Positions 3,792-29,501 of a stretch of 60,614 bases of DNA are shown piece after piece. The stretch is from positions 1 to 60,614 of the forward strand of contig CAZBLH010000002.1 of the NCBI GenBank assembly GCA_964492775.1, in the 5' to 3' direction. Below the pieces are notes generated by a model. It saw nothing but the letters and a program-made list of their open reading frames with translations, made no database searches and was not told the origin of the DNA. Every line of letters begins with the position of its first letter. Position 1 is the first letter of the stretch. Source of the stretch: an uncultured Eubacteriales bacterium (GTDB taxonomy: Bacteria; Actinomycetota; Coriobacteriia; Anaerosomatales; PHET01). Position numbers and translations under genes: made by a program.

Positions 3792-4684
3792 GCGCGGCGG
3801 ACACGCGAAGCGTGAACGAACAGCGCGTCGGGCCCACCCGGCCGCGGCCCGCCACGTGGCGGTGTGGCCGCTTCGAGATTCCTCTGACCGAACCACTCGT
3901 GATGGGCGTGGTCAACGTCACACCCGACTCCTTCTCGGACGGCGGCGAGTACGACGATCCAGCCGCGGCGGTTGCGCACGCCGAGCGACTGGTGGCCCAA
4001 GGCGCTCACATACTCGATGTGGGCGGGGAGTCCACGCGCCCCGGCTCGGCGCAGGTTGCTGCGAGCGAGGAGCTGTCACGCGTCCGTCCCGTCGTCGCGC
4101 GGCTCGCAACCGACGAGGTCCCGGTGTCGATCGACACGCGGCACCCAGAGGTCGCGGCCCGCTGCGTCGAGGCCGGCGCCTCGATCATCAATGACGTTAC
4201 CGGTTTCCGTGATCCGGAGATGATCCGCGTCGCGCTGGCTACGGACGCCGGCCTGGTCGTGATGCACATGCTTGGCACTCCGGAGACGATGCAGGCCGAC
4301 CCGCGCTACGGAGACGTGGTCGCCGAGGTTGGCGGGTTCCTGCTGGCGCAGGCTGCTGTACTCGAGGCCGCCGGAGTAGCCCGCGAGCGGATCGCGATCG
4401 ACCCCGGTATTGGCTTTGGCAAGACGCTCGCGCACAATCTCGCGCTGCTCGCCGCCATCCCCGAACTCATGGGGTACGGCTACCCAGTTCTCATCGGCGC
4501 TTCGCGTAAGCGCTTCATCGGGGAGATTACCGGCGAGAGTCAGGCCAAGCTCCGGTTGGGCGGCTCGGTTGGCGCGGCCCTTGAGGCCGTGCGACTCGGC
4601 GCATCCGTCGTCCGCGTACACGATGTTGCCGAGACGGTCCAAGCGCTGAAGGTCTCCTCGGCGATTCGGGAATACCTCGATTAG
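3788..4684 (+). CDS. folP: Dihydropteroate synthase
   Basis: [37 protein letters not shown]; ATGA overlap with folE. Confidence 0.97.
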
Positions 4685-16141: not shown

Positions 16142-16768
16142 ATGCGACTGTTCCGCATCGGCGACAAGGTGGTGAGCCGAGAGAAGCTCTTCGATGCGGT
16201 CGAGGCCATCTTGGAGGACCGCGAGTCCGGCGCGACCCAGGAGGAGGCGGCACGCCGACACGACGTGCAGCGCTCGTTCGTCTCGTTTCTCGAAACGCTC
16301 GGCGAAGTCCGACGAGGACCCCGGGTGGCTTTGGTCGCCTTTCCTGTCGTGAATGTTGATGAGGTTCGCGCTCTGGCGTCGTCGTACTCCCTCGATTTTG
16401 TCTTGGTCCTGAGCCAGTCGGACAGGGAGTCAATCGAGTCTGGAGATGCGACCGGAATCTTCAACCAGTTGCTTGAGACGCTCGCTGCTCTGCGCGATTT
16501 CGACACGGTCATCATCGCCGCGAGCGACTGGCGAGTGGCGACCATTGAACGGATTCTCGGCACCGAGGTTGTGAGCATGCCGCTCGGCCAGTCGCCGTTG
16601 CGCGAAGACGTGAAGCTCGACCTCGGTGAGTTGGAGCGTGTCCTGTCGGCAGTGATGAGCCGGTCGCCCTCGCGGTCGCGGGGCCGGACTGGACGAGTAG
16701 GGCGCGCGATAAAGGATGTCGCGGATGTGGCCGGGAGGTGGACGCAATCAAGGAAGTCGTCGGCATAA
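16142..16768 (+). CDS. Putative HTH transcriptional regulator of an uncharacterised conserved family
   Basis: GATQEEAARRHDVQRSFVSFLE is HTH-like; RIGDK..S.EK and LGEVRRG..VAL..FP recalled from a family of hypothetical regulators. Confidence 0.65.
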   Translation: MRLFRIGDKVVSREKLFDAVEAILEDRESGATQEEAARRHDVQRSFVSFLETLGEVRRGPRVALVAFPVVNVDEVRALASSYSLDFVLVLSQSDRESIESGDATGIFNQLLETLAALRDFDTVIIAASDWRVATIERILGTEVVSMPLGQSPLREDVKLDLGELERVLSAVMSRSPSRSRGRTGRVGRAIKDVADVAGRWTQSRKSSA

Positions 16769-17721
16769 GCATTGGATCTTCTCGGCGGGACCACAGCGTG
16801 GAGGTCCAGCTGTTCGGAGAGACGTTCCGCATACGCAGGGAAGGAACGGACGGCGATCTGGATGCCGCCGCCGCGCGCATCGCTGAGCTCGATGGGAAGG
16901 TCGACGCGTTCGGGCTTGGAGGCATCGATCTGTACCTGCACGCCGCGGGGCACGACTACTACTTCCGTGAGGCGAAGCGGTTCCGTGCTGCCGCCCAGAA
17001 GACGCCCATCGTCGACGGGTCGGGGCTCAAGGGGGCGGTTGAGGGCGATGTCGTGCGCTTCCTTGCCGAGGACCTTGGACTCGAACTCGCGGGCAAGCGG
17101 GTCCTGGTGACCTCCGCGGTAGACCGCTGGGGCATGGCCATGGCCTTTGCCGACGCCGGGTGCGAGATGACCTACGCGGATCTGCTGTACGCGCTCTCGA
17201 TCCCCATGATGATCCACAAGAAGCCCACGCTCGAGCGGGTGGTGCACGCCATGGCGCCGCTTGCCGTCCAGCTGCCCTTCAAGTGGTTGTACGAGTCAGA
17301 GGCAGATGACACGACGGCAACCAAGTCGAACAGCCCTCATTCGAGTCTGTACAAGGAAGCCGACATCATCGCCGGCGACTTCAAGTACGTGCGCCGGTAC
17401 ATGCCCGATGACATGTCCGGCAAGTGGGTTGTGACCAACACCACGACGCCTGAGGACATCGAGTTCCTGCGTTCGCGGGGAGTGAGCCTGCTCGTGACCT
17501 CGACCCCGCGCCTTGCGGGCCGAAGCTTCGGGACAAACATCATCGAGGCGACGATGGTCGCTCTTGAGGGAACCAGGCAATCCTTGGCCCCGGAGCGCTA
17601 CATGGAGCTGCTGCGCGCAACCGGGTTTACGCCTGATTTCCGGTGGCTGAACGAAGGGCCGCCGATCGGTGCCAGCGAGCCTGAGGTATCTGCTGTCGCA
17701 CCACTGCCGTCCTCGGCATGA
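16738..17721 (+). CDS. Conserved uncharacterised enzyme-like protein (homologues often auto-annotated 'quinate 5-dehydrogenase')
   Basis: SIGSSRRDH, GTDGD, DAFGLGG, PIVDGSGLK, GRSFGTN; family name is from recollection, function not established. Confidence 0.6.
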   Translation: MDAIKEVVGISIGSSRRDHSVEVQLFGETFRIRREGTDGDLDAAAARIAELDGKVDAFGLGGIDLYLHAAGHDYYFREAKRFRAAAQKTPIVDGSGLKGAVEGDVVRFLAEDLGLELAGKRVLVTSAVDRWGMAMAFADAGCEMTYADLLYALSIPMMIHKKPTLERVVHAMAPLAVQLPFKWLYESEADDTTATKSNSPHSSLYKEADIIAGDFKYVRRYMPDDMSGKWVVTNTTTPEDIEFLRSRGVSLLVTSTPRLAGRSFGTNIIEATMVALEGTRQSLAPERYMELLRATGFTPDFRWLNEGPPIGASEPEVSAVAPLPSSA

Positions 17722-17787: not shown

Positions 17788-17839
17788 GAGATGTTAGAAT
17801 TCGGGCGTTCAGGTAAGCAGTGGTTCGGACGGTGCGTTG
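17788..17839 (+). promoter_or_regulatory. ccm operon extended -10 promoter and conserved leader start
   Basis: TGnTAGAAT at 17792-17800; GAGATG-N-TAGAAT-N6-GTTCAGG and GGTGCGTT shared with the hemA upstream region. Confidence 0.7.
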
Positions 17840-17909
17840 ACGGGTCGCTTGCGCGCGACGTCTACCACGCTGTTCTGCGGCCAGAGTGCCGCATGGTAAA
17901 GGAGCTGTC

Positions 17910-18587
17910 GTGAACAAGCGTGCACGTACGCGACTGATCGGTGTCACCGCCATCATCCTGATCGCCGTTGCGGCGATCTTCCTCGCCGGCGGGAACAAGA
18001 CCGCCGCCTACTACAAGACGGTTGAAGAAGCAGCTGCCGACGACACACTCGTCGGTGAGCGCGTCAAAGTCGGTGGGGCCGTTGTTCCCGGCTCTTGGGA
18101 CCGCAAGTCGAACCCCATGACCTTCACAATCCGCGACGAGAGCGACACGTCCGGCACGGGCGCGACCGTGCGCGTCGTCTACAACGGCTCGGTCCCCAGC
18201 ACGTTTGGTGACGGGGTCGTGGCGATCGTCACCGGCGAGCTCGACCAGTCTCGCACCATCGCCGCGGACGAGATGATCACCAAGTGTCCGTCCAAGTACG
18301 AGTCGGCCGAGGGCTCGATGCCCGTGCAGGATCTTGTCGGCAAGGGTGACTCGATGGTCGGCACGACCGTCAAGGCGTCCGGCATCATCAAGGCTGGCTC
18401 CATCGTTCCGCCGGGCGGTGAGTCCCGCTTCGTCCTCACGTCCGAGGGGTCTGGCGGTATCGAGATCCGGGTTGCCTACGATGGCGCGTTGCCCGATGGC
18501 ATGAAGGATGGTTCTGAGGTAGTTGTGACAGGCGCACTCGAAGCGGACGGTGTCTTCGTCGCCACGGGCGTGGCGCTTGCGGAGTAA
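17910..18587 (+). CDS. ccmE: Heme chaperone CcmE, CxxxY variant, with a second CcmE-like domain
   Basis: N-terminal TM, GERVKVGGAVVPGS, VVYNGSVPSTFGDG, KCPSKY (CPSKY at 18285-18299). Confidence 0.9.
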   Translation: MNKRARTRLIGVTAIILIAVAAIFLAGGNKTAAYYKTVEEAAADDTLVGERVKVGGAVVPGSWDRKSNPMTFTIRDESDTSGTGATVRVVYNGSVPSTFGDGVVAIVTGELDQSRTIAADEMITKCPSKYESAEGSMPVQDLVGKGDSMVGTTVKASGIIKAGSIVPPGGESRFVLTSEGSGGIEIRVAYDGALPDGMKDGSEVVVTGALEADGVFVATGVALAE

Positions 18588-18597
18588 GAATGTGTCA

Positions 18598-18634
18598 ACC
18601 AAGATGCCCCGTGCAGCGCGCGGGGCATCTTGGT
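18598..18634 (+). other. Intercistronic hairpin between ccmE and ccmF
   Basis: Perfect 14-bp inverted repeat ACCAAGATGCCCCG-N9-CGGGGCATCTTGGT. Confidence 0.7.
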
Positions 18635-18681
18635 GTGGGAATGCGCTTTCTCAGTACACCTTGAGCTAGACAGGAGACCAG

Positions 18682-20820
18682 ATGCTGCTCGGAACGATGA
18701 GTTTGGCTTTGGGGCTCGTCGCCACGATCGTCGCGGTGCTTGCGCTTGCGTGGGGTCATCGACTAGGGCCCAAGGCCGGCGAGTCCGTCACCAACATCGG
18801 CTACTTCGCTACGTTCGGCGGCGTCATCGCCTATACGGTTGCGGTGCTCACGATCGTGACCGCGTTCTTCGGGGACAACTTCAGCTTTCTCTACGTAGCC
18901 GAGAACCACTCGACGGACGTGTCGAGCCTGTCATGGCTCTACACGCTTTCCGGATTGTGGGCGGGCCGTGAGGGTTCGCTTCTCTTCTGGGCGTGGCTGA
19001 TCTCGGTCTTCGCGGCCTACATCGCGTACCGGCGCATGGACAAGACCGACGCGCTGTCCAACATGGGCCTGCTCGTCACGAACATCGTGCTCGGCCTGTT
19101 CTCGTCGGCCATGCTCTTCGCCGATATCAACAACCCCTTCAAGGCTACTCCCGCGAGCATGCTTGGCCCCAATGGTGAGCTTCTGGCGAACACGGCCATG
19201 AACCCGTTGCTGCAGCACTGGGCCATGATCCTGCACCCGCCGACGCTATTCATCGGCTATGCGGGTCTCACGATCCCGTTCGCGTTTGCGATGGCCGCCC
19301 TTATCGTCAATGACCCTTCCAAGAAGTGGGTCGAGATCGTCGACCGCATCACGCTGTTCTCGTGGCTGTTTCTTGGCGTCGGCATCGGCTTGGGCTCGGT
19401 CTGGGCATACGTAGTGCTCGGATGGGGCGGTTACTGGGCATGGGACCCGGTGGAGAACGCTTCGCTGTTGCCATGGCTTACCGGCGTGGGCCTCATTCAC
19501 AGCTTCACGGTCTACCGGCGGCGGGATGGTTTCAAGCGCTGGGCGATCGTCAACGCTACCGTGACGTTCTCGCTCGTCATCCTTGGCACGTTCATCACGC
19601 GCTCGGGCATCGTGCAGTCAGTGCACGCATTTCAGGCGGACTCCTTCTCGACCTACCTGTTCGGGTTCATGATCTTCGGCCCCCTCGTGGCGTTGGCCGC
19701 AGGTCTCTTTGTCCGTGGCAATTCGTTCGACGGCAATGACGATTTCGAGTCGCTTACGAGCAAGGAAGCCGCTTACTACTTCAACAACGTGCTGATGCTG
19801 ATTGCCGCTGTGATCGTGGCGTACATGACGGTCTCCTCGGCGCTGCCCTCATGGTTGCCGTTCGGTGGACAGTCGATCGGCGCGACCACCTACGACCTGC
19901 TCGCGCGGCCCGTCGGTATCCTCTACGCGTTCATTCTGGCCGTTTGCCCGATCCTGGCGTGGCGCAAGACCGACGCGGCCACGTTCTGGAACCGTGCACG
20001 CTGGCCGTTCGTGGCAGCTGCGGTGATCTTCGCGCTCCTCGTTGCCGAGTGGTACGTGAACCTGAGGCCCATCTACGACTTCATGGTCGCCCAGGGCGGG
20101 AAGGGTGCCGCAGGGTTCGTGGCGTTCGGCCCGAGCTGGGTCTACCACGGGCTCGCACTGCTGGCCTTCGCCGCCGCATCGCTCATCATCGCCAACGGAC
20201 TGTGGCTCTTCGTGGACGGCGCGCGCAAGCGTGCTGCCTCCAAAGGCGAGAACTTCTTCTCGGCGCTTTGGGAGATCATCACCAAGGCCCGCACCCAGTC
20301 GGGCGGCTACATCGCCCACCTCGGCATCGGCATCATCCTGATCGGCCTTGTCGGCTCGGCGATGTACGTCCGTGACGTCAAGGTCCTGCTGCCGGCCCAG
20401 GAGGGCTCGAGCTTCGAGGTCTCCAACTACTCGTTCACGTTCCAAGGCACCTCGACCAACGAGCTGCCGAACGGCGACGTCGAGTCGGTTGCGACCTTCG
20501 AGGTGTACCGTGACGGCCAGCGGCTCGGCACGGTGACCCCGGGCCTGACCACGTTTGCCCGTCAGAACCAGACGCGGCTGAACGCCGCCGTGTTGTCCGA
20601 GGCGCTCCGCGACATCTTCATGGTATGGGAGGGCACGCAACAGGGTGAGGGCGGCGAGGCACAGCTCTCGCTCAACGTGAAGATCAACCCGCTCATCTGG
20701 TTTGCTTGGAGCGGCTTCGGGATCCTGCTCGTAGGCTCGGCGCTTGCCACTTGGCCGCGTCGACGCCAGCTCGAGCCGGTTCCGGCGGGTAAGTCGCGCG
20801 CCAAGGGCGCAGCCAAGTAG
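18682..20820 (+). CDS. ccmF: Cytochrome c synthase subunit CcmF
   Basis: WAGREGSLLFW, MNPLLQH..MILHPP, WGGYWAWDPVENAS, TRSG..SVHAF. Confidence 0.96.
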   Translation: MLLGTMSLALGLVATIVAVLALAWGHRLGPKAGESVTNIGYFATFGGVIAYTVAVLTIVTAFFGDNFSFLYVAENHSTDVSSLSWLYTLSGLWAGREGSLLFWAWLISVFAAYIAYRRMDKTDALSNMGLLVTNIVLGLFSSAMLFADINNPFKATPASMLGPNGELLANTAMNPLLQHWAMILHPPTLFIGYAGLTIPFAFAMAALIVNDPSKKWVEIVDRITLFSWLFLGVGIGLGSVWAYVVLGWGGYWAWDPVENASLLPWLTGVGLIHSFTVYRRRDGFKRWAIVNATVTFSLVILGTFITRSGIVQSVHAFQADSFSTYLFGFMIFGPLVALAAGLFVRGNSFDGNDDFESLTSKEAAYYFNNVLMLIAAVIVAYMTVSSALPSWLPFGGQSIGATTYDLLARPVGILYAFILAVCPILAWRKTDAATFWNRARWPFVAAAVIFALLVAEWYVNLRPIYDFMVAQGGKGAAGFVAFGPSWVYHGLALLAFAAASLIIANGLWLFVDGARKRAASKGENFFSALWEIITKARTQSGGYIAHLGIGIILIGLVGSAMYVRDVKVLLPAQEGSSFEVSNYSFTFQGTSTNELPNGDVESVATFEVYRDGQRLGTVTPGLTTFARQNQTRLNAAVLSEALRDIFMVWEGTQQGEGGEAQLSLNVKINPLIWFAWSGFGILLVGSALATWPRRRQLEPVPAGKSRAKGAAK

Positions 20821-20823
20821 CGT

Positions 20824-21555
20824 ATGGCCGCATCAGACTCCACGACACTGGCACTCGAAGTCTCGGATCTCTCTCGAGTCTTCGGCGCGCGCAAGGCGCT
20901 CGACCGTGTGAGCCTTGAGCTGCCTGCGGGGTCCTTCCTCTCGATCTTCGGCCCGAACGGGGCGGGGAAGACCACATTTCTGAAGATACTCTCGACGCTC
21001 GCCGTCCCCTCATCAGGGACGGCGCGCGTGCTCGGTCTGAACACGACCGAGGACGCCGTTGAGCTGCGTGAGCGGATTGGCTTCATCAGTCACAACCCGC
21101 TGCTCTACCCTGACCTAACCGCCGAGGAGAACCTGCAGTTCTTCGCCGAGATCTACTGCATCGAGAGGCCCGCCGAGCGCATTCGCGAGCTGCTGACCGC
21201 GGTCGAGCTCGATCACCGCAGGCTGGACCTCGTGCGGACGTTCTCCCGTGGCATGCTGCAGCGGCTGTCGATCGCCCGAGCGCTTCTGCACGAGCCCGAG
21301 GTGATCTTCCTCGACGAGCCGTACTCCGGTCTCGACCCGCACGCCGCCGACATCCTCGACTCGCTGATCGCCCAGATCCGCGAACGGCATACGTTCGTGA
21401 TGGTCAGCCATGACCTCACCAAGGGGCTTGAGTTGTGCACCCACGCTCTGATCCTTGCGAAGGGTAAGGTCGTGCTCTTCGAGCCGCGTGCCGAGATCGA
21501 TGAGGCCGAGTTCGCGTCCCTGTATCGCGCGACCGTCGGGATGGGGGTGTCCTAA
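20824..21555 (+). CDS. ccmA: Heme export ABC ATPase CcmA
   Basis: GPNGAGKTT, FSRGMLQR, FLDEPYSGLD; ccm context. Confidence 0.92.
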   Translation: MAASDSTTLALEVSDLSRVFGARKALDRVSLELPAGSFLSIFGPNGAGKTTFLKILSTLAVPSSGTARVLGLNTTEDAVELRERIGFISHNPLLYPDLTAEENLQFFAEIYCIERPAERIRELLTAVELDHRRLDLVRTFSRGMLQRLSIARALLHEPEVIFLDEPYSGLDPHAADILDSLIAQIRERHTFVMVSHDLTKGLELCTHALILAKGKVVLFEPRAEIDEAEFASLYRATVGMGVS

Positions 21556-21562
21556 GGCAGCC

Positions 21563-22315
21563 ATGTCCGAGACCCTTTCGCACTCGCAGAGCGCATCAGC
21601 GCGATCGCGCCAGTTGTCCTCTCTGCGCCAGTTCAAGGCGATCCTGCGCAAGGACATCGTCATGGAGCTGCGCACCAAAGAGATGCTAACCTCGATGGGC
21701 CTGTACGCGTTGTTGGTGCTCGTCGTCTACTTCATCGCGCTCCAGAGCGCGGGTCAGAACTTCGAGGTCAGGAAGATCGCAGCGGGACTGCTCTGGCTCG
21801 TCTTCATCTTCACCTCGTTGCTGGGGCTCAACCGCTCACTCGTCCACGAGAAGGACCAGGGCTGCCTCGACGCACTCCTGATTTCGCCGATCGACCGTCC
21901 GGTCATCTTCTTCGGCAAGGCCGTGGGCAACCTCGTCTTTCTCGTCATCGTCGAGGTGCTGATCGTCCCGCTCTTCTTCTTCATCTTCATGGCCCAGACC
22001 GGGGGCGTGTCCGCTGGTCAGATCGGACTCCTCGCTCTTGCGCTTCTGGCCGGATCGATCGGCATCGCGGGTGTCGGTACGCTGCTTGCAACGATGTCGG
22101 TGAATACGAAGGGCAAGGACTTCATCCTGGCCGTACTCTTCATCCCGATCATGTTTCCGTTGCTGCTGGCGGTCGTCTCGGCAACCTCCGCCCTCCTGAT
22201 GGGAGAGGTCGGCTTCGAGGCCGTGTACTGGCAGCGGATGGCTCTGGCCGGCGGCTACAATGGCATCATGCTGTTGGCCGCGTTTGCACTGTACGAGTTC
22301 GTGCTGGGCGCCTGA
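21563..22315 (+). CDS. ccmB: Heme export permease CcmB
   Basis: KDIVMELRTKE, EKDQGCLDALL, six TM helices; follows ccmA. Confidence 0.9.
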   Translation: MSETLSHSQSASARSRQLSSLRQFKAILRKDIVMELRTKEMLTSMGLYALLVLVVYFIALQSAGQNFEVRKIAAGLLWLVFIFTSLLGLNRSLVHEKDQGCLDALLISPIDRPVIFFGKAVGNLVFLVIVEVLIVPLFFFIFMAQTGGVSAGQIGLLALALLAGSIGIAGVGTLLATMSVNTKGKDFILAVLFIPIMFPLLLAVVSATSALLMGEVGFEAVYWQRMALAGGYNGIMLLAAFALYEFVLGA

Positions 22316-22345
22316 TCAACACAGCGCCGAGAAAGGACAGTCGAG

Positions 22346-23098
22346 ATGAAACAGCTGCGAGTCGCCATCGCGCTGGTACTGGTCGGAGGGCTACTGACGA
22401 CCGCAGCGTTCCTGATGGCGTTCCTGACAGCAGAGGTGCAGTCGTTCGGTGAGGTCACGTTCGAGCAGCCCATCGAGACCGCGTTCCCTGCACGGGGACA
22501 GTCGCCGGACGGTGGCTACACCTACGGCAGACCCTGGTTCAGCCAGAAGATCTTCTACTTCCATGTGCCGGTCGCCGAGGCGTCCTTCCTCGTGCTGCTT
22601 ATCTCGGCGTTCTTCGGCATCCGCTTCTTGACGACCAAGCGCGCCGAGTACGACACCAAGTCACGCATCGCGATGGAGACGGCGCTCATCTTCGTGGTGC
22701 TCACGATGATCACCGGCGTGCTCTGGACCCGCGCGTCCTGGGGGGTGTGGTGGGAATGGGAGCCTAGGCTCACCACCTACTTCATCATGATGCTGATGAT
22801 GATTGCGTACTTTGTGCTCCGCTCTTCGGTCGAGGAGGAGGAGCGCCGAGCCGTCTATGCGGCCGTGTTCGCCGTCATCGCGGCAATCAACGCACCGATA
22901 TCCTTCATGATCACGCGCATCATCCCGTCGAGCCACCCAGTTGTGTTCCAGTCGGGTATGGCTCCCTCGAACCTGCTGCCGTTCATCGTCGGCCAGATCG
23001 GCATGCTGATGATCGGGTACGGGATCTACACGGTCCGCATGACCGAGGAGCGCCTGCGCGAGCGGGTCGAGATCGCCAAGGAAGCCTTCGAAGGCTGA
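22346..23098 (+). CDS. ccmC: Heme export protein CcmC
   Basis: KIFYFHVP, WTRASWGVWWEWEPRLTT (WWD domain), C-terminal HP. Confidence 0.93.
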   Translation: MKQLRVAIALVLVGGLLTTAAFLMAFLTAEVQSFGEVTFEQPIETAFPARGQSPDGGYTYGRPWFSQKIFYFHVPVAEASFLVLLISAFFGIRFLTTKRAEYDTKSRIAMETALIFVVLTMITGVLWTRASWGVWWEWEPRLTTYFIMMLMMIAYFVLRSSVEEEERRAVYAAVFAVIAAINAPISFMITRIIPSSHPVVFQSGMAPSNLLPFIVGQIGMLMIGYGIYTVRMTEERLRERVEIAKEAFEG

Positions 23099-23123
23099 GA
23101 ACGTCTGAGAGGAGAGCGGACCA

Positions 23124-23309
23124 ATGCATCCAACCAACGCTGAGCTCTACGAGCTGGTCCTTACCGATGCACCCTTCGTCATCGCTGCCTACACCGTGTT
23201 GTGGGTCGCACTCGTCGGCTACGTGACGATCGTGCTGCGGCGGCTGGGGCAGCTGGAGAAGGAAGTCGGCGTTCTCGAGGAGTCAGTCGCTCGGCGCAAG
23301 AACTCCTAG
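23124..23309 (+). CDS. ccmD: CcmD-like small membrane protein
   Basis: FVIAAYTVLWVALVGYV TM followed by a charged helix; directly after ccmC; GGAG RBS. Confidence 0.75.
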   Translation: MHPTNAELYELVLTDAPFVIAAYTVLWVALVGYVTIVLRRLGQLEKEVGVLEESVARRKNS

Positions 23310-23378
23310 CCCGTTTCGGTGCCCGGAGCCGTATACTCGTTTCGTGAGAGGACTCCGGCCGGCGATGGGATCTGAACT

Positions 23379-24215
23379 GTGGAGCTAGCCTCATCGGTAC
23401 TGTTCTGGTTCGCGTTTGCGCTGTTCGTTGGCGCGACTGTGCTGTACTCATACCAGTTCGTCCTTAAGCGTTCGAGGGTCGTGTGGTGGGCGCGGTTGCT
23501 CACGGGGGCCGGCTTCCTGTGCCTGACGGGCTCCATTGTGACGGCCTCGATCGCCAATGGGCGCATGCTCTTCAGCGGGCGCAACCAGCTCGTTCTCGCA
23601 GCCTGGGCGCTCGTTCTCCTGTACTTCGTCCTTGAACACATCCTGCGCATCCGGGCCTACGGCGCGTTTCTGGTGCCCATCGGAGTCATCCTGCTGGCAA
23701 TATCGGTGCTGGCGCACAGATCGGGTGCTGCGCTCACGGCTGAGCAGGAGTTCCTGATCAGCAGCGCGGGCATTGGGTTCCACGTGCTGCTGATCGCGCT
23801 TGCCAACGCGGGCTTCGTTTTCGGTGCGATCTCCTCTGCGCTCTACCTCTACCAGAGCAGCCAGCTGAGGCTTCACCGATCCAATCGTGTCAGCCGAAGG
23901 TTGCCGTCGCTTGCCACACTGCAGACCGTCGCCCGCCGGTCCGTGTCGCTGGGCTTCCCTGTCTACGCCGCCGGGCTCACTTTGGGCGTCATCCGTGCGA
24001 TCCAGACGGACGTGGGTGGCTGGTGGGCGGACCCGCGCGTGATGATGGCGGGCATCGTATGGGCAACCTTCGCGGTCTTCCTGCTCACCGTATACCGCAA
24101 CAACGTCTCGTCACGCACGGGCGCATGGATATCCATAGTCGGCCTGGTCTTCGTGGTCATACTCGCGATTCTCGCGCGTACGGTCTCGGCCGGGTTCCAC
24201 GTCTTCGGCGTGTAG
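23379..24215 (+). CDS. CcsA/HemX-like heme-handling membrane protein
   Basis: About 8 TM, FHV, RLPSLATL, WWADPR, terminal GFHVF; TATACT upstream. Confidence 0.8.
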   Translation: MELASSVLFWFAFALFVGATVLYSYQFVLKRSRVVWWARLLTGAGFLCLTGSIVTASIANGRMLFSGRNQLVLAAWALVLLYFVLEHILRIRAYGAFLVPIGVILLAISVLAHRSGAALTAEQEFLISSAGIGFHVLLIALANAGFVFGAISSALYLYQSSQLRLHRSNRVSRRLPSLATLQTVARRSVSLGFPVYAAGLTLGVIRAIQTDVGGWWADPRVMMAGIVWATFAVFLLTVYRNNVSSRTGAWISIVGLVFVVILAILARTVSAGFHVFGV

Positions 24216-24228
24216 CTGGAGGAACACC

Positions 24229-25005
24229 TTGAGTGATCGGCACAAGCGCTACCTGCCCGTGTTCTTGGACCTTGCCGGACGCCGAGCGGTACTGATCGGC
24301 GAGAGCCCCGCGATCGACCGCCGAGTCCGCCAGCTCATGCGGTACGGGGCCGAGATAACGGTCATCACCCCCAAGGCCAGCGGCGCCTTGCGAGACGCTG
24401 CGGCACAGGAGCTACTGACGCTCCACGAGCGCGCCTATGTGCGCGGTGACCTTGATGGCGCGTTCTACGTGCAGTGCATGGTGAAGGACGAGGAGGTCTG
24501 CCGAGCGGTCTTTGAGGAGGGCGACGCTGCGGGCTGTCTCGTGAACGTGAGCGGCTCGGACGAGCTGCGCAACTTCTTGTTGCCGAGCGTGATCCACCGC
24601 GAGCCGCTGCAAGTGGCGATCTCGACCGGCGGCTGCGCTCCCGAGGCGGCCAAGGCCGTGAAGCAGGGAATCGAGGCCGCTCTGGGTCAGGAGTGGGTGG
24701 ACTGGATCAACCTCCTCATCGACGTGCGCGAGGCACCTATCTCGCCGAAGGACCCGCCTGACCAGCGCGAGCGTGAGATCGCTATCGTCGCTCGGGAGCA
24801 GACGCGGGAGCGCATCTTCACTGGGGAGTACCTCACCGCCCGCGACATCCAGGGTCAGGCCAAAGCCGAACGGTTGCGCGAGGACCTGCTCGCGAAGGCG
24901 GAGGCTGTGCTCACCGGTCCCAGCACTCAGCAAACGGACGAGGGCGAGGACGAGACCGGCGCCAGCGAGGGCGCGACCGACGCGAACGGTGATTCGGAAG
25001 CGTGA
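24229..25005 (+). CDS. Precorrin-2 dehydrogenase/ferrochelatase-like protein (SirC/Met8p/CysG-N), degenerate motifs
   Basis: YLPVFLDLAGR, GAEITVITP, LQVAISTGG.AP; lacks the GGG..A nucleotide motif. Confidence 0.75.
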   Translation: MSDRHKRYLPVFLDLAGRRAVLIGESPAIDRRVRQLMRYGAEITVITPKASGALRDAAAQELLTLHERAYVRGDLDGAFYVQCMVKDEEVCRAVFEEGDAAGCLVNVSGSDELRNFLLPSVIHREPLQVAISTGGCAPEAAKAVKQGIEAALGQEWVDWINLLIDVREAPISPKDPPDQREREIAIVAREQTRERIFTGEYLTARDIQGQAKAERLREDLLAKAEAVLTGPSTQQTDEGEDETGASEGATDANGDSEA

Positions 25006-25856
25006 GACCCCCCGCCTTATCCTCAACTCAAGGCCTCGCCGTCATCACCGGCGGCTCGAGTGGAATGGGTCTCGCCACTGCGAAGCAGCTCGCTGCGCGT
25101 GGCATGCGCGTGGTGATCGTCTCTCGCGATCCCGCCAAGCTGGCCGCAGCGCACGAACAGATCGCGAATGTGGCGTCGCACGGCAGTTACGTCGCGTCCT
25201 TCTCGGCGGATCTCTCGAACTGGGAGGCGACCGAGGCCGTCTTCGGCCGCATCACCTCCGAGTTTGGCGTGCCGGACGTGCTCGTGAACTCGGCAGGAGT
25301 GATCTACCCCGGCGAGTTCGTCTCCATGCCGCTCTCTGATTTTGAGATCAACATGACGTGCGGGTACTGGAGCGTCGTGTACCCGTGCCGAGCAGCAGCG
25401 CCACTCATGGCCGAGCGGGGGAGCGGGCACATCATCAACGTCTCGTCCGTCGCAGGCTTCTTGGGCATCTACGGCTACACGGGCTACTCCTCGGCGAAGT
25501 TCGCGGTCGTCGGTTTTTCCGAGGCGCTACGCTTCGAGATGCGGCCGGCTGGCGTGCGGGTCAGCTGCATCTGCCCGCCCGACACTGAGACCCCCGCTCT
25601 CGCGCTCGAGCACACCATGCGCCCGCACGAGACCGACGTCATCGCCGGAAACATCAAGCCGATACCAGCCGAGAAGGTCGCGGAGGCGATAGTGGCATCG
25701 ATCGGCCGGGACCGGTTCATGGTGATTCCGGACGCACTCTCGGCTTTCTACTTCCGGCTGAAGGGGCTGCTCCCCGAGGTCTTCCAAGCGATCGTCGACG
25801 GGGACGTGCGCAAGGCCCGGGCGGCCCGAACGACCGATGCGCGCAAGGGCGGATGA
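25002..25856 (+). CDS. Short-chain dehydrogenase/reductase, 3-ketodihydrosphingosine reductase (KDSR)-like
   Basis: TGGSSGMG, NSAG, SSVAG, YTGYSSAKFA, PPDTETP. Confidence 0.8.
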   Translation: MRPPALSSTQGLAVITGGSSGMGLATAKQLAARGMRVVIVSRDPAKLAAAHEQIANVASHGSYVASFSADLSNWEATEAVFGRITSEFGVPDVLVNSAGVIYPGEFVSMPLSDFEINMTCGYWSVVYPCRAAAPLMAERGSGHIINVSSVAGFLGIYGYTGYSSAKFAVVGFSEALRFEMRPAGVRVSCICPPDTETPALALEHTMRPHETDVIAGNIKPIPAEKVAEAIVASIGRDRFMVIPDALSAFYFRLKGLLPEVFQAIVDGDVRKARAARTTDARKGG

Positions 25857-25950
25857 GGCACGGAATCGGCTGGTGAATAGGCTTAATGAACCTTTCGGCA
25901 GGGGGTTTGCTTGCCCTCTGACGTGCGCGGGAGCTGGTAAGAGGGCTTGT

Positions 25951-26144
25951 GAGATGGTAGAATCGCGGAGTTCAGGCGAAAAGCTGGTGCGTTCAATGAA
26001 GAAGTTATACACCGCCCTCGCCGGGCCTGCTTGCCTGAACACCAACGCACCGCTCCGGCGAGGGCGTACCTATGTCCTGACGGGCCCGTGTCTCGGCGAC
26101 GAGGCGGGCGTAGACGATTCAATCGGTGAGGCGATCAAAGCCGC
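25951..26144 (+). promoter_or_regulatory. hemA extended -10 promoter and ~175-nt structured 5' leader (candidate regulatory RNA)
   Basis: TGnTAGAAT 25955-25963; 12-bp stem 26013-26024/26055-26066; crossing helices 25970-25979/26031-26040 and 25986-25993/26044-26051; GNRA hairpin 26084-26109. Confidence 0.7.
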
Positions 26145-27518
26145 ATGCATCTGACGCTTGTGGGGCTCAGCCACAAGACCGCTCCGGTCGCCATACGCGA
26201 GAAGCTCACGTTCTCCGAGAGTGCGCAAGCTGACGCGCTCACTCGGCTGACCGGCCTCAAGAGCGTCTCCGAGGCCGTCATCCTCTCGACGTGCAACCGC
26301 ACCGAGGTATACGCGCTCACCTCGGCATCCGTCGACGGCCCTGGCGCAATCATCGAGTTCCTCGCTGAGTACCATGACCTCGATCCTGTCGAGCTGACCC
26401 GTTATCTCTACATCGAGGAGGGTGAGGCGGTCGTTCGGCATCTGTTCCGCGTCGTGGCCTCGCTCGACTCCATGGTGCTCGGCGAAGCGCAGATTCTCGG
26501 GCAGGTGAAGGACGCCTACGAGGTCGCCTTCCAGAACCAGGCATGTGGGCGGGTGTTCAACCGCCTGTTCAGGCAATCGTTCGAGGTCGGCAAGCGTGTT
26601 CGTACCGAGACCGACATCGGCGAGAACGCCGTCTCGATCAGCTACGCGGCGATCGAGCTCACCAAGCGCGTCTTCGAGAAGCTTGAAGGACGCTGTGTCT
26701 TGGTGATCGGCGCCGGCAAGATGAGCGAACTCACCGCCAAGCACCTCGTGAGCAACGGCGTGCGGCGTGTCCTTGTCGCGAACCGCACCTTCGAGCGCGC
26801 GCGCGATCTCGCCGAGAAGTTCGGCGGCGAGGCAATCGAGTACGACAAGCTCTACGAGCGCATGCGCGAGGCCGACATCGTCATCTCCTCGACGGCTGCA
26901 ACCAGCTATGTGATCACCCGCGACGAAATCGCGCGCGTCGCGCGCCGCCGCCGCGATCCGCTGTTCCTGATCGACATCGCGGTGCCGCGTGACATCGACC
27001 CCGAGTGCGCGACCGTGCCCGACGTATTCCTCTACGACATCGATGCGCTGAACAACGTCGTCTCGGCGAACCTCGAGGAGCGGATGATCGAGGCGAAGCG
27101 CGCCGAGCTCATCATCGACGATGAGATCGCGTCCTTCGAGGCGTGGCTGGACTCGATGGAGGTCGTCCCGACCATCGCCGCGATCCGCACGAAGGCAGAG
27201 CAGGTGCGCGCCGAGGAGCTCGAGAAGGCTCTGAAGTGCCTCGGCGGGTTGTCGGAGAAGGAGCTGCAGGCGGTGGAGGCGCTGTCGTGCGCCATCGTCA
27301 ACAAGATGCTCCACGGCCCCACCGCGCGCCTCAAGAAGGTGGCCGCCGAGAAACACGGCTACAACTACGTACAAGCCGCCCGGTACCTGTACGGGCTCGA
27401 CACCAATCCTGATGGCAAGAACCCGCACTTGGGGCTTCTGAGGTCGCTGCTGGCCCGGGGAGAGAACACCTCCGGCGCCACGCCCGGCAACGAGATGGGA
27501 GACACCTGTGGCTACTAG
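26145..27518 (+). CDS. hemA: Glutamyl-tRNA reductase
   Basis: GLSHKTAP, LSTCNRTE, LDSMVLGEAQILGQVK, IGAGKM, DIAVPRD. Confidence 0.98.
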   Translation: MHLTLVGLSHKTAPVAIREKLTFSESAQADALTRLTGLKSVSEAVILSTCNRTEVYALTSASVDGPGAIIEFLAEYHDLDPVELTRYLYIEEGEAVVRHLFRVVASLDSMVLGEAQILGQVKDAYEVAFQNQACGRVFNRLFRQSFEVGKRVRTETDIGENAVSISYAAIELTKRVFEKLEGRCVLVIGAGKMSELTAKHLVSNGVRRVLVANRTFERARDLAEKFGGEAIEYDKLYERMREADIVISSTAATSYVITRDEIARVARRRRDPLFLIDIAVPRDIDPECATVPDVFLYDIDALNNVVSANLEERMIEAKRAELIIDDEIASFEAWLDSMEVVPTIAAIRTKAEQVRAEELEKALKCLGGLSEKELQAVEALSCAIVNKMLHGPTARLKKVAAEKHGYNYVQAARYLYGLDTNPDGKNPHLGLLRSLLARGENTSGATPGNEMGDTCGY

Positions 27519-29425: not shown

Positions 29426-29501
29426 GGGGACGTGGCTCAGTTGGGAGAGCGCTGCCTTCGCACGGCAGAGGTCGGCGGTTCGAATCCGCTCGTCTCCACC
29501 A
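29426..29501 (+). tRNA. tRNA-Ala (anticodon CGC)
   Basis: 76-nt cloverleaf GGGGACG...CGTCTCC-ACCA, G3:U70 pair, anticodon arm CTGCC-TTCGCAC-GGCAG, GGTTCGAATCC T-arm, encoded CCA. Confidence 0.98.

Follow-up and report, generated by a model that had tools for sequence, protein, structure and literature searches.

Introduction

Pairing of an RNA to a messenger RNA (mRNA) at its very 5′ end has described precedents. RoxS is reported to pair with the 5′ end of yflS in Bacillus subtilis, blocking the 5′-3′ exonuclease RNase J1 and raising expression (Durand et al. 2017, PMC5419742), and in Listeria monocytogenes the 3′ untranslated region (UTR) of hly pairs with the 5′ UTR of prsA2, so that one mRNA stabilises another and a toxin is coupled to its chaperone (Ignatov et al. 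2020, PMC8722363). Here, we analyzed the leader of hemA, the gene for glutamyl-tRNA reductase, in an uncultured bacterium of the Coriobacteriia. The stretch studied (contig CAZBLH010000002.1, 60,614 nt) is called the window below; its two leaders, their promoters, ccmE and hemA lie on the + strand. A hairpin loop in this leader matches, in antisense, the 5′ end of the ccm operon transcript, and we consider it likely that the hemA leader carries a base-pairing regulatory RNA module targeting the 5′ end of the ccm mRNA. To our knowledge, hardly any post-transcriptional regulators are known from Coriobacteriia, and they are scarce among Actinobacteria lacking Hfq.

Results

Complementarity between the ccm and hemA leaders

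The predicted ccm transcript begins, at its +1, with a sequence that we call the A-box, GTTCAGGTAAGCAG (17807–17820). This box complements positions 26027–26040 in the hemA leader (CTGCTTGCCTGAAC), with one G·U pair. A B-box, CGGTGCGTTG (17830–17839), follows and is the complement of positions 26043–26052 (CAACGCACCG). The loop thus offers 14 contiguous base pairs (one G·U) on its anti-A side and ten perfect ones on its anti-B side to the 5′ end of ccm. The 5′ end of hemA itself achieves only two helices, one of 8 + 4 bp interrupted by a 3-nt bulge and another of 8 bp. The longest helix is 14 against 10 bp and the predicted duplex energy −25.7 against −22.4 kcal/mol in favor of ccm. The boxes and their targets in the loop stand in the same order, so that their pairing is non-colinear. 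A first-pass annotation of the window had described the four stretches, a 12-bp hairpin, helices of 14 bp with one wobble and 10 perfect bp, and the non-colinear geometry; all of these were found again at the same coordinates.

Both leaders share a composite motif, as GGTGCGTT recurs 3′ of GTTCAGG in each of them (25970–25993 in hemA, 17807–17838 in ccm). The composite GTTCAGG-N(1-30)-GGTGCGTT occurred twice in the window and never in 100 shuffles. A scan of the 1.9-Mb genome for further leaders of this kind, which the first-pass annotation had proposed, returned these two leaders only, and no intergenic site in the genome other than the 5′ end of ccm is able to pair with the loop 14-mer. As a measure of the match we used the length of the contiguous helix in place of the duplex energy. 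A contiguous helix of at least 14 bp (Watson-Crick and G·U pairs) between the first 44 nt of ccm and the loop arose in 11 of 5000 dinucleotide shuffles.

Conservation of the complementarity in relatives

We recovered 60 distinct pairs of ccm and hemA leaders, each from the same genome, and used 59 of them (L114 was left out); the supposed ccm leader of L112 was a spurious regex match and was dropped. In all 59 distinct leader/loop pairs a 12-nt core is pairable, allowing G·U pairs and bulges, and the box lies at the 5′ end of the ccm leader. Among the 53 insertion-free pairs, 40 of the 41 substituted ccm cells at box positions 1–13 still pair (C8>U, 5; A9>G, 2; A10>G, 10; C12>U, 3; A13>G, 20), the single disruptive one being A13>C. 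The six G/U positions of the ccm box, where a change means a lost pair, show zero substitutions, and positions 14–15 fray freely. Six ccm leaders have insertions of 1–6 nt, and both halves of their boxes are still complementary to the loop.

Changes in ccm also meet diverged loops. The loop GCCACGCUUGCC.. (GCCACGC..) of genome G149 is met by ..AAGCG-AAA-UGGC in ccm, and the loop GCAUCGCUUGCC.. (GCAUCGC..) of genome G193 by ..GGCAUG, for which a 1-nt bulge in the loop is needed. In genome G213 both of two C>U changes in the loop lie opposite G. On the side of the B-box, a helix with the loop's 3′ part, at least 7 contiguous bp long, can form at +16 to +45 in 50 of the 59 ccm leaders, compared with 10% of shuffles. 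Its register varies between leaders, which indicates that what is kept is complementarity and not one fixed word. Where the loop reads CACUGC, four genomes accommodate the variant by G·U pairs, and two from different families (G163 and G089) carry a compensating GCAGUG.

We further compared the ccm box with the respective hemA box of the same genome in 54 genomes (L072, L145, L146, L147 and L151 were left out, since their own box or −10 element was not parsed). The ccm box is predicted to form the more stable duplex with the loop in 53 of them, with a median of −29.5 compared to −23.4 kcal/mol, and its helix is longer in 50, equal in two and shorter in two. The better match of ccm, noticed in the first-pass annotation, therefore extends well beyond the window.

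From this comparison, the extreme 5′ end of the predicted ccm mRNA, with a contiguous A-box at +1 and the B-box about 10 nt further on, is kept complementary to the loop. The strand asymmetry of the substitutions, together with the tolerated insertions, argues for RNA pairing and not for a DNA operator, and supports selection on the ccm–loop complementarity at the RNA level.

The hemA leader as a structured RNA

The hemA leader starts with its own 5′ boxes (25970–25993), consisting of GTTCAGGC (25970–77), a 3-nt bulge, AAGC (25981–84) and GGTGCGTT (25986–93). Downstream lies the hairpin P1, whose GC-rich 12-bp stem is formed by CGCCCTCGCCGG (26013–26024) and CCGGCGAGGGCG (26055–26066) and was found in the minimum-energy fold. 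The stem encloses a loop of 30 nt (26025–26054), which consists mainly of anti-A CCTGCTTGCCTGAAC (26026–40), the linker ACC and anti-B AACGCACCGC (26044–53). A pyrimidine-rich tail without a U-run follows the stem.

We aligned 60 distinct hemA leaders that were chosen via the loop motif at a maximum of one mismatch. Anti-A is unchanged in 59 of them, the exception being a single C>T in L008. P1 is paired in 100% of the cells; four of its pairs are altered on both strands, and one of these is C:G or U:A at 32 versus 28 sequences. The comparison thus shows P1 to be an RNA helix. In the pairing of hemA's own B-box with anti-B, two pairs changed from GC to AU (5 sequences each) and many are G·U, and the A1 helix (8 bp) formed by the own A-box shows no variation. 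For the complete pseudoknotted structure 96.7% of the cells are paired, compared with 35–46% in slid controls.

The own A-box is split by an insertion of 2–5 nt in all 60 leaders. This insertion slides, yielding either GTTCAGGC-nnn-AAGCAG or GTTCAGGCAA-nnn-GCAG, which is explained by a pairing partner rather than by a protein site. Judged by comparison, the 5′ end of hemA, with its bulged A-box and its B-box, thus pairs with the loop as a pseudoknot, and the conserved bulge could serve as a ligand pocket. Between the two loci, for which the first-pass annotation had suggested a check of covariation in relatives, mostly pairing-neutral substitutions in the ccm box were seen; within the hemA leader, compensated changes were seen in P1 and in the pairing of the own B-box.

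P1 does not have the format of an intrinsic terminator in the window, where a U-run is absent after the stem (the longest T run in the next 12 nt is 1), so that read-through into hemA is expected. Across the order, T runs of at least 3 follow P1 in 16 of the 60 leaders and runs of at least 4 in six. The 3′ strand of P1 in the window ends in a Shine-Dalgarno-like GAGGG, followed at a distance of about 7 nt by ATG TCC TGA (26061–26080 in total, the three codons at 26072–26080). Many relatives have NTG (ATG, GTG or TTG) plus YCC at the same position after P1. This may be a tiny upstream open reading frame (ORF), which in the window would encode two residues, or a further RNA motif.

Distribution across the order and class

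Among 14 metagenome-assembled genomes (MAGs) encoding HemA relatives with 63–80% identity, the leader is present in all 14. According to their titles these are mostly Coriobacteriia, the rest being Actinomycetes, Actinomycetota, actinobacterium and one Eubacteriales. In these loci, ten ccmE upstream regions were recovered, all of which start with GTTCAGG(C/T)A(A/G)GC after a −10 element. We then searched 401 sampled genomes of the class and found the loop 14-mer in 139 of them; by family-row sums these are 129 of the 145 genomes of the window's order and nine of 255 others. Of the order's 145 genomes, none matched a backwards control pattern. In many of the genomes, one hit lies on each strand, 7–8.3 kb from the other, and these two correspond to the 5′ end of ccm and the loop of hemA.

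In some relatives (L004 at ~2136, L019/L163, L166 and L169), a second box-like copy, GTTCAGGCTAGCG, lies after ATTAAG-N4-5 about 45 nt 5′ of the box at the main ccm promoter. It is not present in the window and could reflect tandem promoters that give identical 5′ ends, or it could be taken as an argument for recognition at the DNA level.

Free-standing hairpins and other genes with a box

Four more distant genomes (G401–G404; HemA ~54% identical) contain the 11-mer box 3–6 times per genome, compared with none for the control. In three of them (G401, G403 and G404) we identified a free-standing hairpin with the same loop, a U-run and a covarying stem. The G401 hairpin is located between moaC-like and mog-like genes, the one in G403 has a moaC-like gene on one side (assigned by eye from the translations). 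The free-standing copies have plausible −35 and −10 hexamers 85–95 nt upstream and a run of U6–U7 after the stem, their stems differ compensatorily between genomes, and no own A-box was found in the copies examined. By this comparison, the hairpin and its loop form a predicted free-standing small RNA gene with a U-run terminator in distant lineages. Free-standing-looking anti-A hairpins were also found in two other families of the class, in 5/5 genomes examined (G040, G004, G031, G034 and G028). In other classes of the phylum, the element was found in one of 149 sampled genomes (G492), where it is not free-standing and has, as in the hemA leaders, a 5′ box of its own.

The hemA leaders of G401–G404 have the box at their start and a terminator hairpin of their own with a different loop. 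The stem of this terminator (L208, L201, L209 and L212) resembles that of the free-standing P1 (CCCCTGC../..GGTAGGGG), and its loop is unrelated. This suggests that the terminator hairpin of the hemA leader and the free-standing hairpin of these genomes are paralogous. In the same clade, cspA and other genes have a box at or near their 5′ ends; for the cold-shock gene (translation MVQGTVKWFN), the box lies about 40 nt before the start codon in G402 and G403 (L205 and L211).

Within the window's order, six genomes from four families have a box in front of a gene whose product is a membrane-anchored protein of ~180 amino acids (aa). The box is positioned a few nt before the ribosome-binding site and after a small 5′ hairpin, and its place beside the ribosome-binding site suggests translational control for that gene. 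Some of these boxes are on other contigs or 483 kb away (G147). The protein (~170–180 aa) had no significant Pfam match, the best being DUF7567 with an E-value of 0.047, below the cut-off. Copies of the gene lie at 3900–4439 (−) in L076, at 4130–4462 (−) in L075 and at C25:4486–5012 in the window's own genome, where the homologue has lost the box; in two genomes the gene is located 5′ of a DinG-like helicase/exonuclease gene. In G233, an A-box at +1 and a CGGTGC hairpin (L161, 245–433, − strand) precede a 30-codon hydrophobic ORF, followed by a flavodiiron-like gene (by eye). This leader may represent another class of target or a rearranged ccm leader.

Several weaker matches were set aside. 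In the window's own genome, the site C43:10711 (TAGAAT-N4-GTTCAGGC, 5′ of an alanyl-tRNA-synthetase-like ORF, by eye) has only the first 8 nt of the box, and the G·U-rich matches to the loop on C19 and C23 lie inside ORFs. The region C34:1428–1530 (site C34:1442) shows a −10-like TACGCT, 6 nt, GTTCAGGCAAGCG and, about 60 nt further on, a hairpin that resembles a terminator and has a T-run; it is neighbored by arsR-like and heavy-metal ATPase-like genes (by eye). A short box-bearing RNA (target, decoy or sponge) would have this format, but an ORF of 209 aa on the opposite strand encloses the region, which we regard as possibly due to chance. Other matches of the 11-mer or 14-mer were attributed to chance, namely those in Walker-A GSGKT codons, in a recA-like gene (L055, by eye), in an AT-rich stretch (L058) and in the coding-like contexts of L216–L218.

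Genes, promoters and transcripts in the window

The genes in the window are arranged in the order ccmE, ccmF, ccmA, ccmB, ccmC, a CcsA-like gene, a sirohaem-synthase-like gene, a short-chain dehydrogenase gene and then hemA (Pfam), and every gene between the two leaders is co-oriented. ccmE (17910–18587; Pfam CcmE, 7e-37) is the first gene of the ccmEFABC operon, and hemA (26145–27518) was assigned by Pfam GlutR_N (1e-56) and two further GlutR domains. An extended −10 element, TGnTAGAAT, is predicted 6 nt before the start of both leaders, at 17792–17800 for ccm (TGtTAGAAT) and at 25955–25963 for hemA (TGgTAGAAT, also backed by relatives), and both leaders open with GTTCAGG. A TAnnnT hexamer lies mostly 6 nt (maximum 7) 5′ of the box in every relative's ccm leader displayed. 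Directly 5′ of the ccm promoter is an ORF of 327 aa (16738–17721) without a Pfam match, and a tRNA gene (29426–29498; Rfam tRNA, 66.7 bits) lies 3′ of the hem genes.

Five pieces of the ccm–hemA region have perfect matches in the metatranscriptome set X1. One contig from a compost metatranscriptome, a perfect match, ends at 17814, 7 nt past the predicted ccm +1, a weak hint at the start site.

Search for known families

No Rfam 15 family reached its gathering score in the window. With two leaders and a free-standing copy as queries and E-values up to 10, Rfam gave spurious hits only (E above 0.1). We also considered GAA/UUC in the boxes as possible mimicry of tRNA-Glu or a T-box; a check by Rfam gave no T-box match. 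A literature search, from which the motif lists in the supplements of structured-RNA surveys were left aside, yielded no paper on the element, and PMC8040213 contained nothing relevant on hemA, heme, Coriobacter or Eggerthella. The first-pass annotation knew of no similar system. For the element itself this stands, whereas its principle is not new, since pairing at the extreme 5′ end is known from RoxS–yflS and hly–prsA2.

Discussion

Proposed mode of action

The module that we propose consists of the P1 hairpin, whose 30-nt loop would offer anti-A (CCUGCUUGCCUGAAC) and anti-B (..CGCACCGC) as its two antisense segments. The small RNA appears, in the window's order, to have been captured in the hemA leader, and this leader, as part of the mRNA or as a short, processed or terminated species, would pair in trans with the ccm 5′ end. 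The cis and trans pairings use the same loop bases and would therefore be mutually exclusive, so that the hemA and ccm transcripts could influence one another. Together with P1, the two non-colinear helices would form a three-way arrangement in which the linker of the target (6–10 nt) crosses the end of the stem. With a free 5′ end, the target could be wound into the loop, and this may explain the position of the box exactly at +1.

As for the outcome, pairing of the terminal nucleotides might shield the ccm mRNA from 5′-end-dependent decay, as in RoxS–yflS and hly–prsA2, and ccm expression would then be licensed by the abundance of the hemA leader. This suggestion is tentative and has, in our judgment, somewhat less than an even chance. 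We favor protection because hemA and ccm alike have the box in a terminal position and because the window's genome encodes both RNase J and RNase E/G. Moreover, fusing a protective partner to hemA would make evolutionary sense, whereas fusing a destructive one would not. The alternative outcome is repression, via a block of translation or cleavage of the duplex.

A further possibility, which we consider rather doubtful, is a reciprocal switch between two mRNAs. Here, the ccm 5′ end would act as the 'ligand' that displaces the weaker, bulged box of hemA, and a small RNA found throughout the class would have been captured in the 5′ UTR of its own target. The fate of each transcript would then depend on the abundance of the other, and heme synthesis would be matched to the capacity for cytochrome c maturation. 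Apart from this particular scheme, heme synthesis may plausibly be coupled to cytochrome c maturation. The first-pass annotation had read the device as such a link; the ccm and hemA pairings stand, and the system appears wider, including the membrane-protein gene in six genomes and cspA and others in distant relatives.

Points against the proposed module

Several points weigh against a module that targets ccm. The aligned sequences are related, so that the counts of cells exceed the number of independent events and the formal statistics are weakened. Anti-A and the A-box core are nearly invariant, and the evidence consists mostly of wobble pairs with few full compensations; the cases of fully compensated loops come from one genus and need a bulge in the alignment. 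The genomes were picked through the loop 14-mer, which biases them toward invariant loops. Many of the assemblies are incomplete MAGs, in which another RNA bearing the loop sequence may have gone unseen. A short terminated RNA species is not predicted in the window. The RNA data are assembled contigs from one compost metatranscriptome study that leave the hemA leader (25970–26066) uncovered and are uninformative on absence. The additional targets, the membrane protein and cspA, have no obvious link to heme, so that a 'heme regulon' is not established. Finally, the predicted duplex energy between ccm and the loop (−25.7 kcal/mol) is close to the shuffle mean of −24.7, and 762 of 2000 dinucleotide shuffles were equally good. 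This energy does not single out the real pair, because GC-rich sequences with G·U pairs and interior loops score high regardless. The significance of the match rests on its contiguity, its position and, above all, its conservation.

Alternative explanations

The explanation that survives best next to a trans-acting module, improbable as it appears to us, is a leader acting in cis only. The loop would serve a pseudoknot with the 5′ end of hemA, in the manner of a riboswitch or attenuator, and the ccm boxes would be a paralogous module for a common trans factor. The pairing with the own end is indeed the one with clean covariation, the 2–5-nt bulge is universal in hemA leaders, and the hemA leaders of the distant clade keep the A-box at +1 despite their different hairpin loop. 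However, such a leader does not account for the wobble-only substitutions in the ccm box, for its bulge-type insertions or for the changes that match diverged loops. The register of the ccm B-box is unlike that of hemA's own B-box, and yet both complement the loop. Rfam gave no riboswitch match, and the free-standing hairpins lack an own A-box, which implies that the loop functions without a cis partner.

Much less probable is a set of DNA operators, with GTTCAGGCAAGCAGG as a repressor site over the +1 of the ccm, hemA and other promoters and the loop copy as a second, inverted operator. In the sense of transcription, the only substitutions are A>G and C>U, with neither G>A nor U>C among them, a pattern that fits pairing of the transcript and not a protein site. 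The box is not palindromic, it tolerates insertions of 1–6 nt, and in hemA it is always split. These features stand against its overlap with the predicted starts at a fixed spacing from the −10 in two operons, its invariance over ~13 bp and the second box-like copy ~45 nt 5′ of the ccm promoter in L004, L019, L166 and L169, all of which an operator would explain. In addition, the inverted copy lies inside a covarying RNA hairpin that elsewhere is the terminator of a free-standing gene.

The first-pass annotation had proposed an RNA–RNA device in which the ccm 5′ end competes with the hemA 5′ end in trans or in cis on a read-through transcript. Selection for the pairing of the loop with ccm and the use of the same loop bases by the own end support the RNA–RNA pairing as such, and the read-through is unnecessary in view of the free-standing genes and remote boxes. 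We regard long-range pairing on one ~8-kb ccm–hemA transcript as marginally less probable still than the operators. It would suit the co-oriented genes between the leaders and the spacing of 7–8.3 kb kept in many genomes, and is opposed by the conserved promoter directly 5′ of the hemA leader, by the membrane-protein boxes on other contigs or 483 kb off in G147, and by the free-standing small RNA genes, which must act in trans. Chance complementarity of two GC-rich leaders has practically no probability left, as conservation refutes it: the duplex energy is no better than in shuffles, but a helix of at least 14 bp arose in only 11/5000 of them, and 129 of the 145 genomes of the order have the motif at both loci, the control in none.

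Significance and comparison with known systems

If the base-pairing module in the hemA leader holds true, it would be a new bacterial regulatory RNA family and a natural case of a small RNA captured in the leader of its target with a built-in cis decoy. It would also provide a post-transcriptional link from tetrapyrrole synthesis to cytochrome c biogenesis. Its seed of ~25 nt is nearly invariant, about nine in ten of the genomes sampled from an uncultured order carry the element, and with the ccm and hemA mRNA 5′ ends it has clearly assignable predicted targets. This would make it a clean system for studying the pairing of a 5′ end with a loop and protection from RNase J or RNase E.

Iron-sparing small RNAs (sRNAs) such as RyhB, PrrF/PrrH, IsaR1 and MrsI have hemA and cytochrome-related mRNAs among their targets. 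The element described here has no sequence relation to them; no Fur/IdeR-type box was seen, and none was searched for. The shared promoter of the regulator and hemA in the window is also unlike a simple iron-sparing repression. In Listeria, SreA and SreB act on prfA, an example of an RNA derived from a leader with a riboswitch that pairs with the mRNA 5′ UTR of another gene. In contrast to these, no ligand-binding aptamer is evident here and the leader belongs to no known riboswitch class. In RNA-IN/RNA-OUT of IS10, pairing is nucleated by the target's free 5′ end within the loop of a stable regulator hairpin, and a free 5′ end solves the topological problem posed by a closed loop into which over one helical turn has to be wound. 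The IS10 antisense RNA is encoded in cis and perfectly complementary, whereas here separate genes are involved and two short segments are joined non-colinearly.

The two systems named at the outset are also among the closest known. The coupling of a product to its helper in hly–prsA2 would correspond here to heme synthesis and the heme chaperone/ligation system. The regulator in our case lies in a 5′ leader instead, appears related to or descended from a free-standing small RNA, and is predicted to pair with its own 5′ end as well. With RoxS–yflS, the window's genome shares that RNase J is encoded. RoxS pairs through C-rich regions and differs in sequence and fold, and the element here, which matches no RsaE/RoxS model of Rfam, is not a member of that family. 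Its predicted seed is a hairpin loop of 30 nt that has two non-colinear segments, is placed in an mRNA leader and is accompanied by a cis decoy. The element is thus, to judge from these comparisons, a new regulatory RNA family that would follow a known principle with an unusual architecture, namely a seed in the loop of a leader hairpin, a built-in cis decoy and two non-colinear helices.

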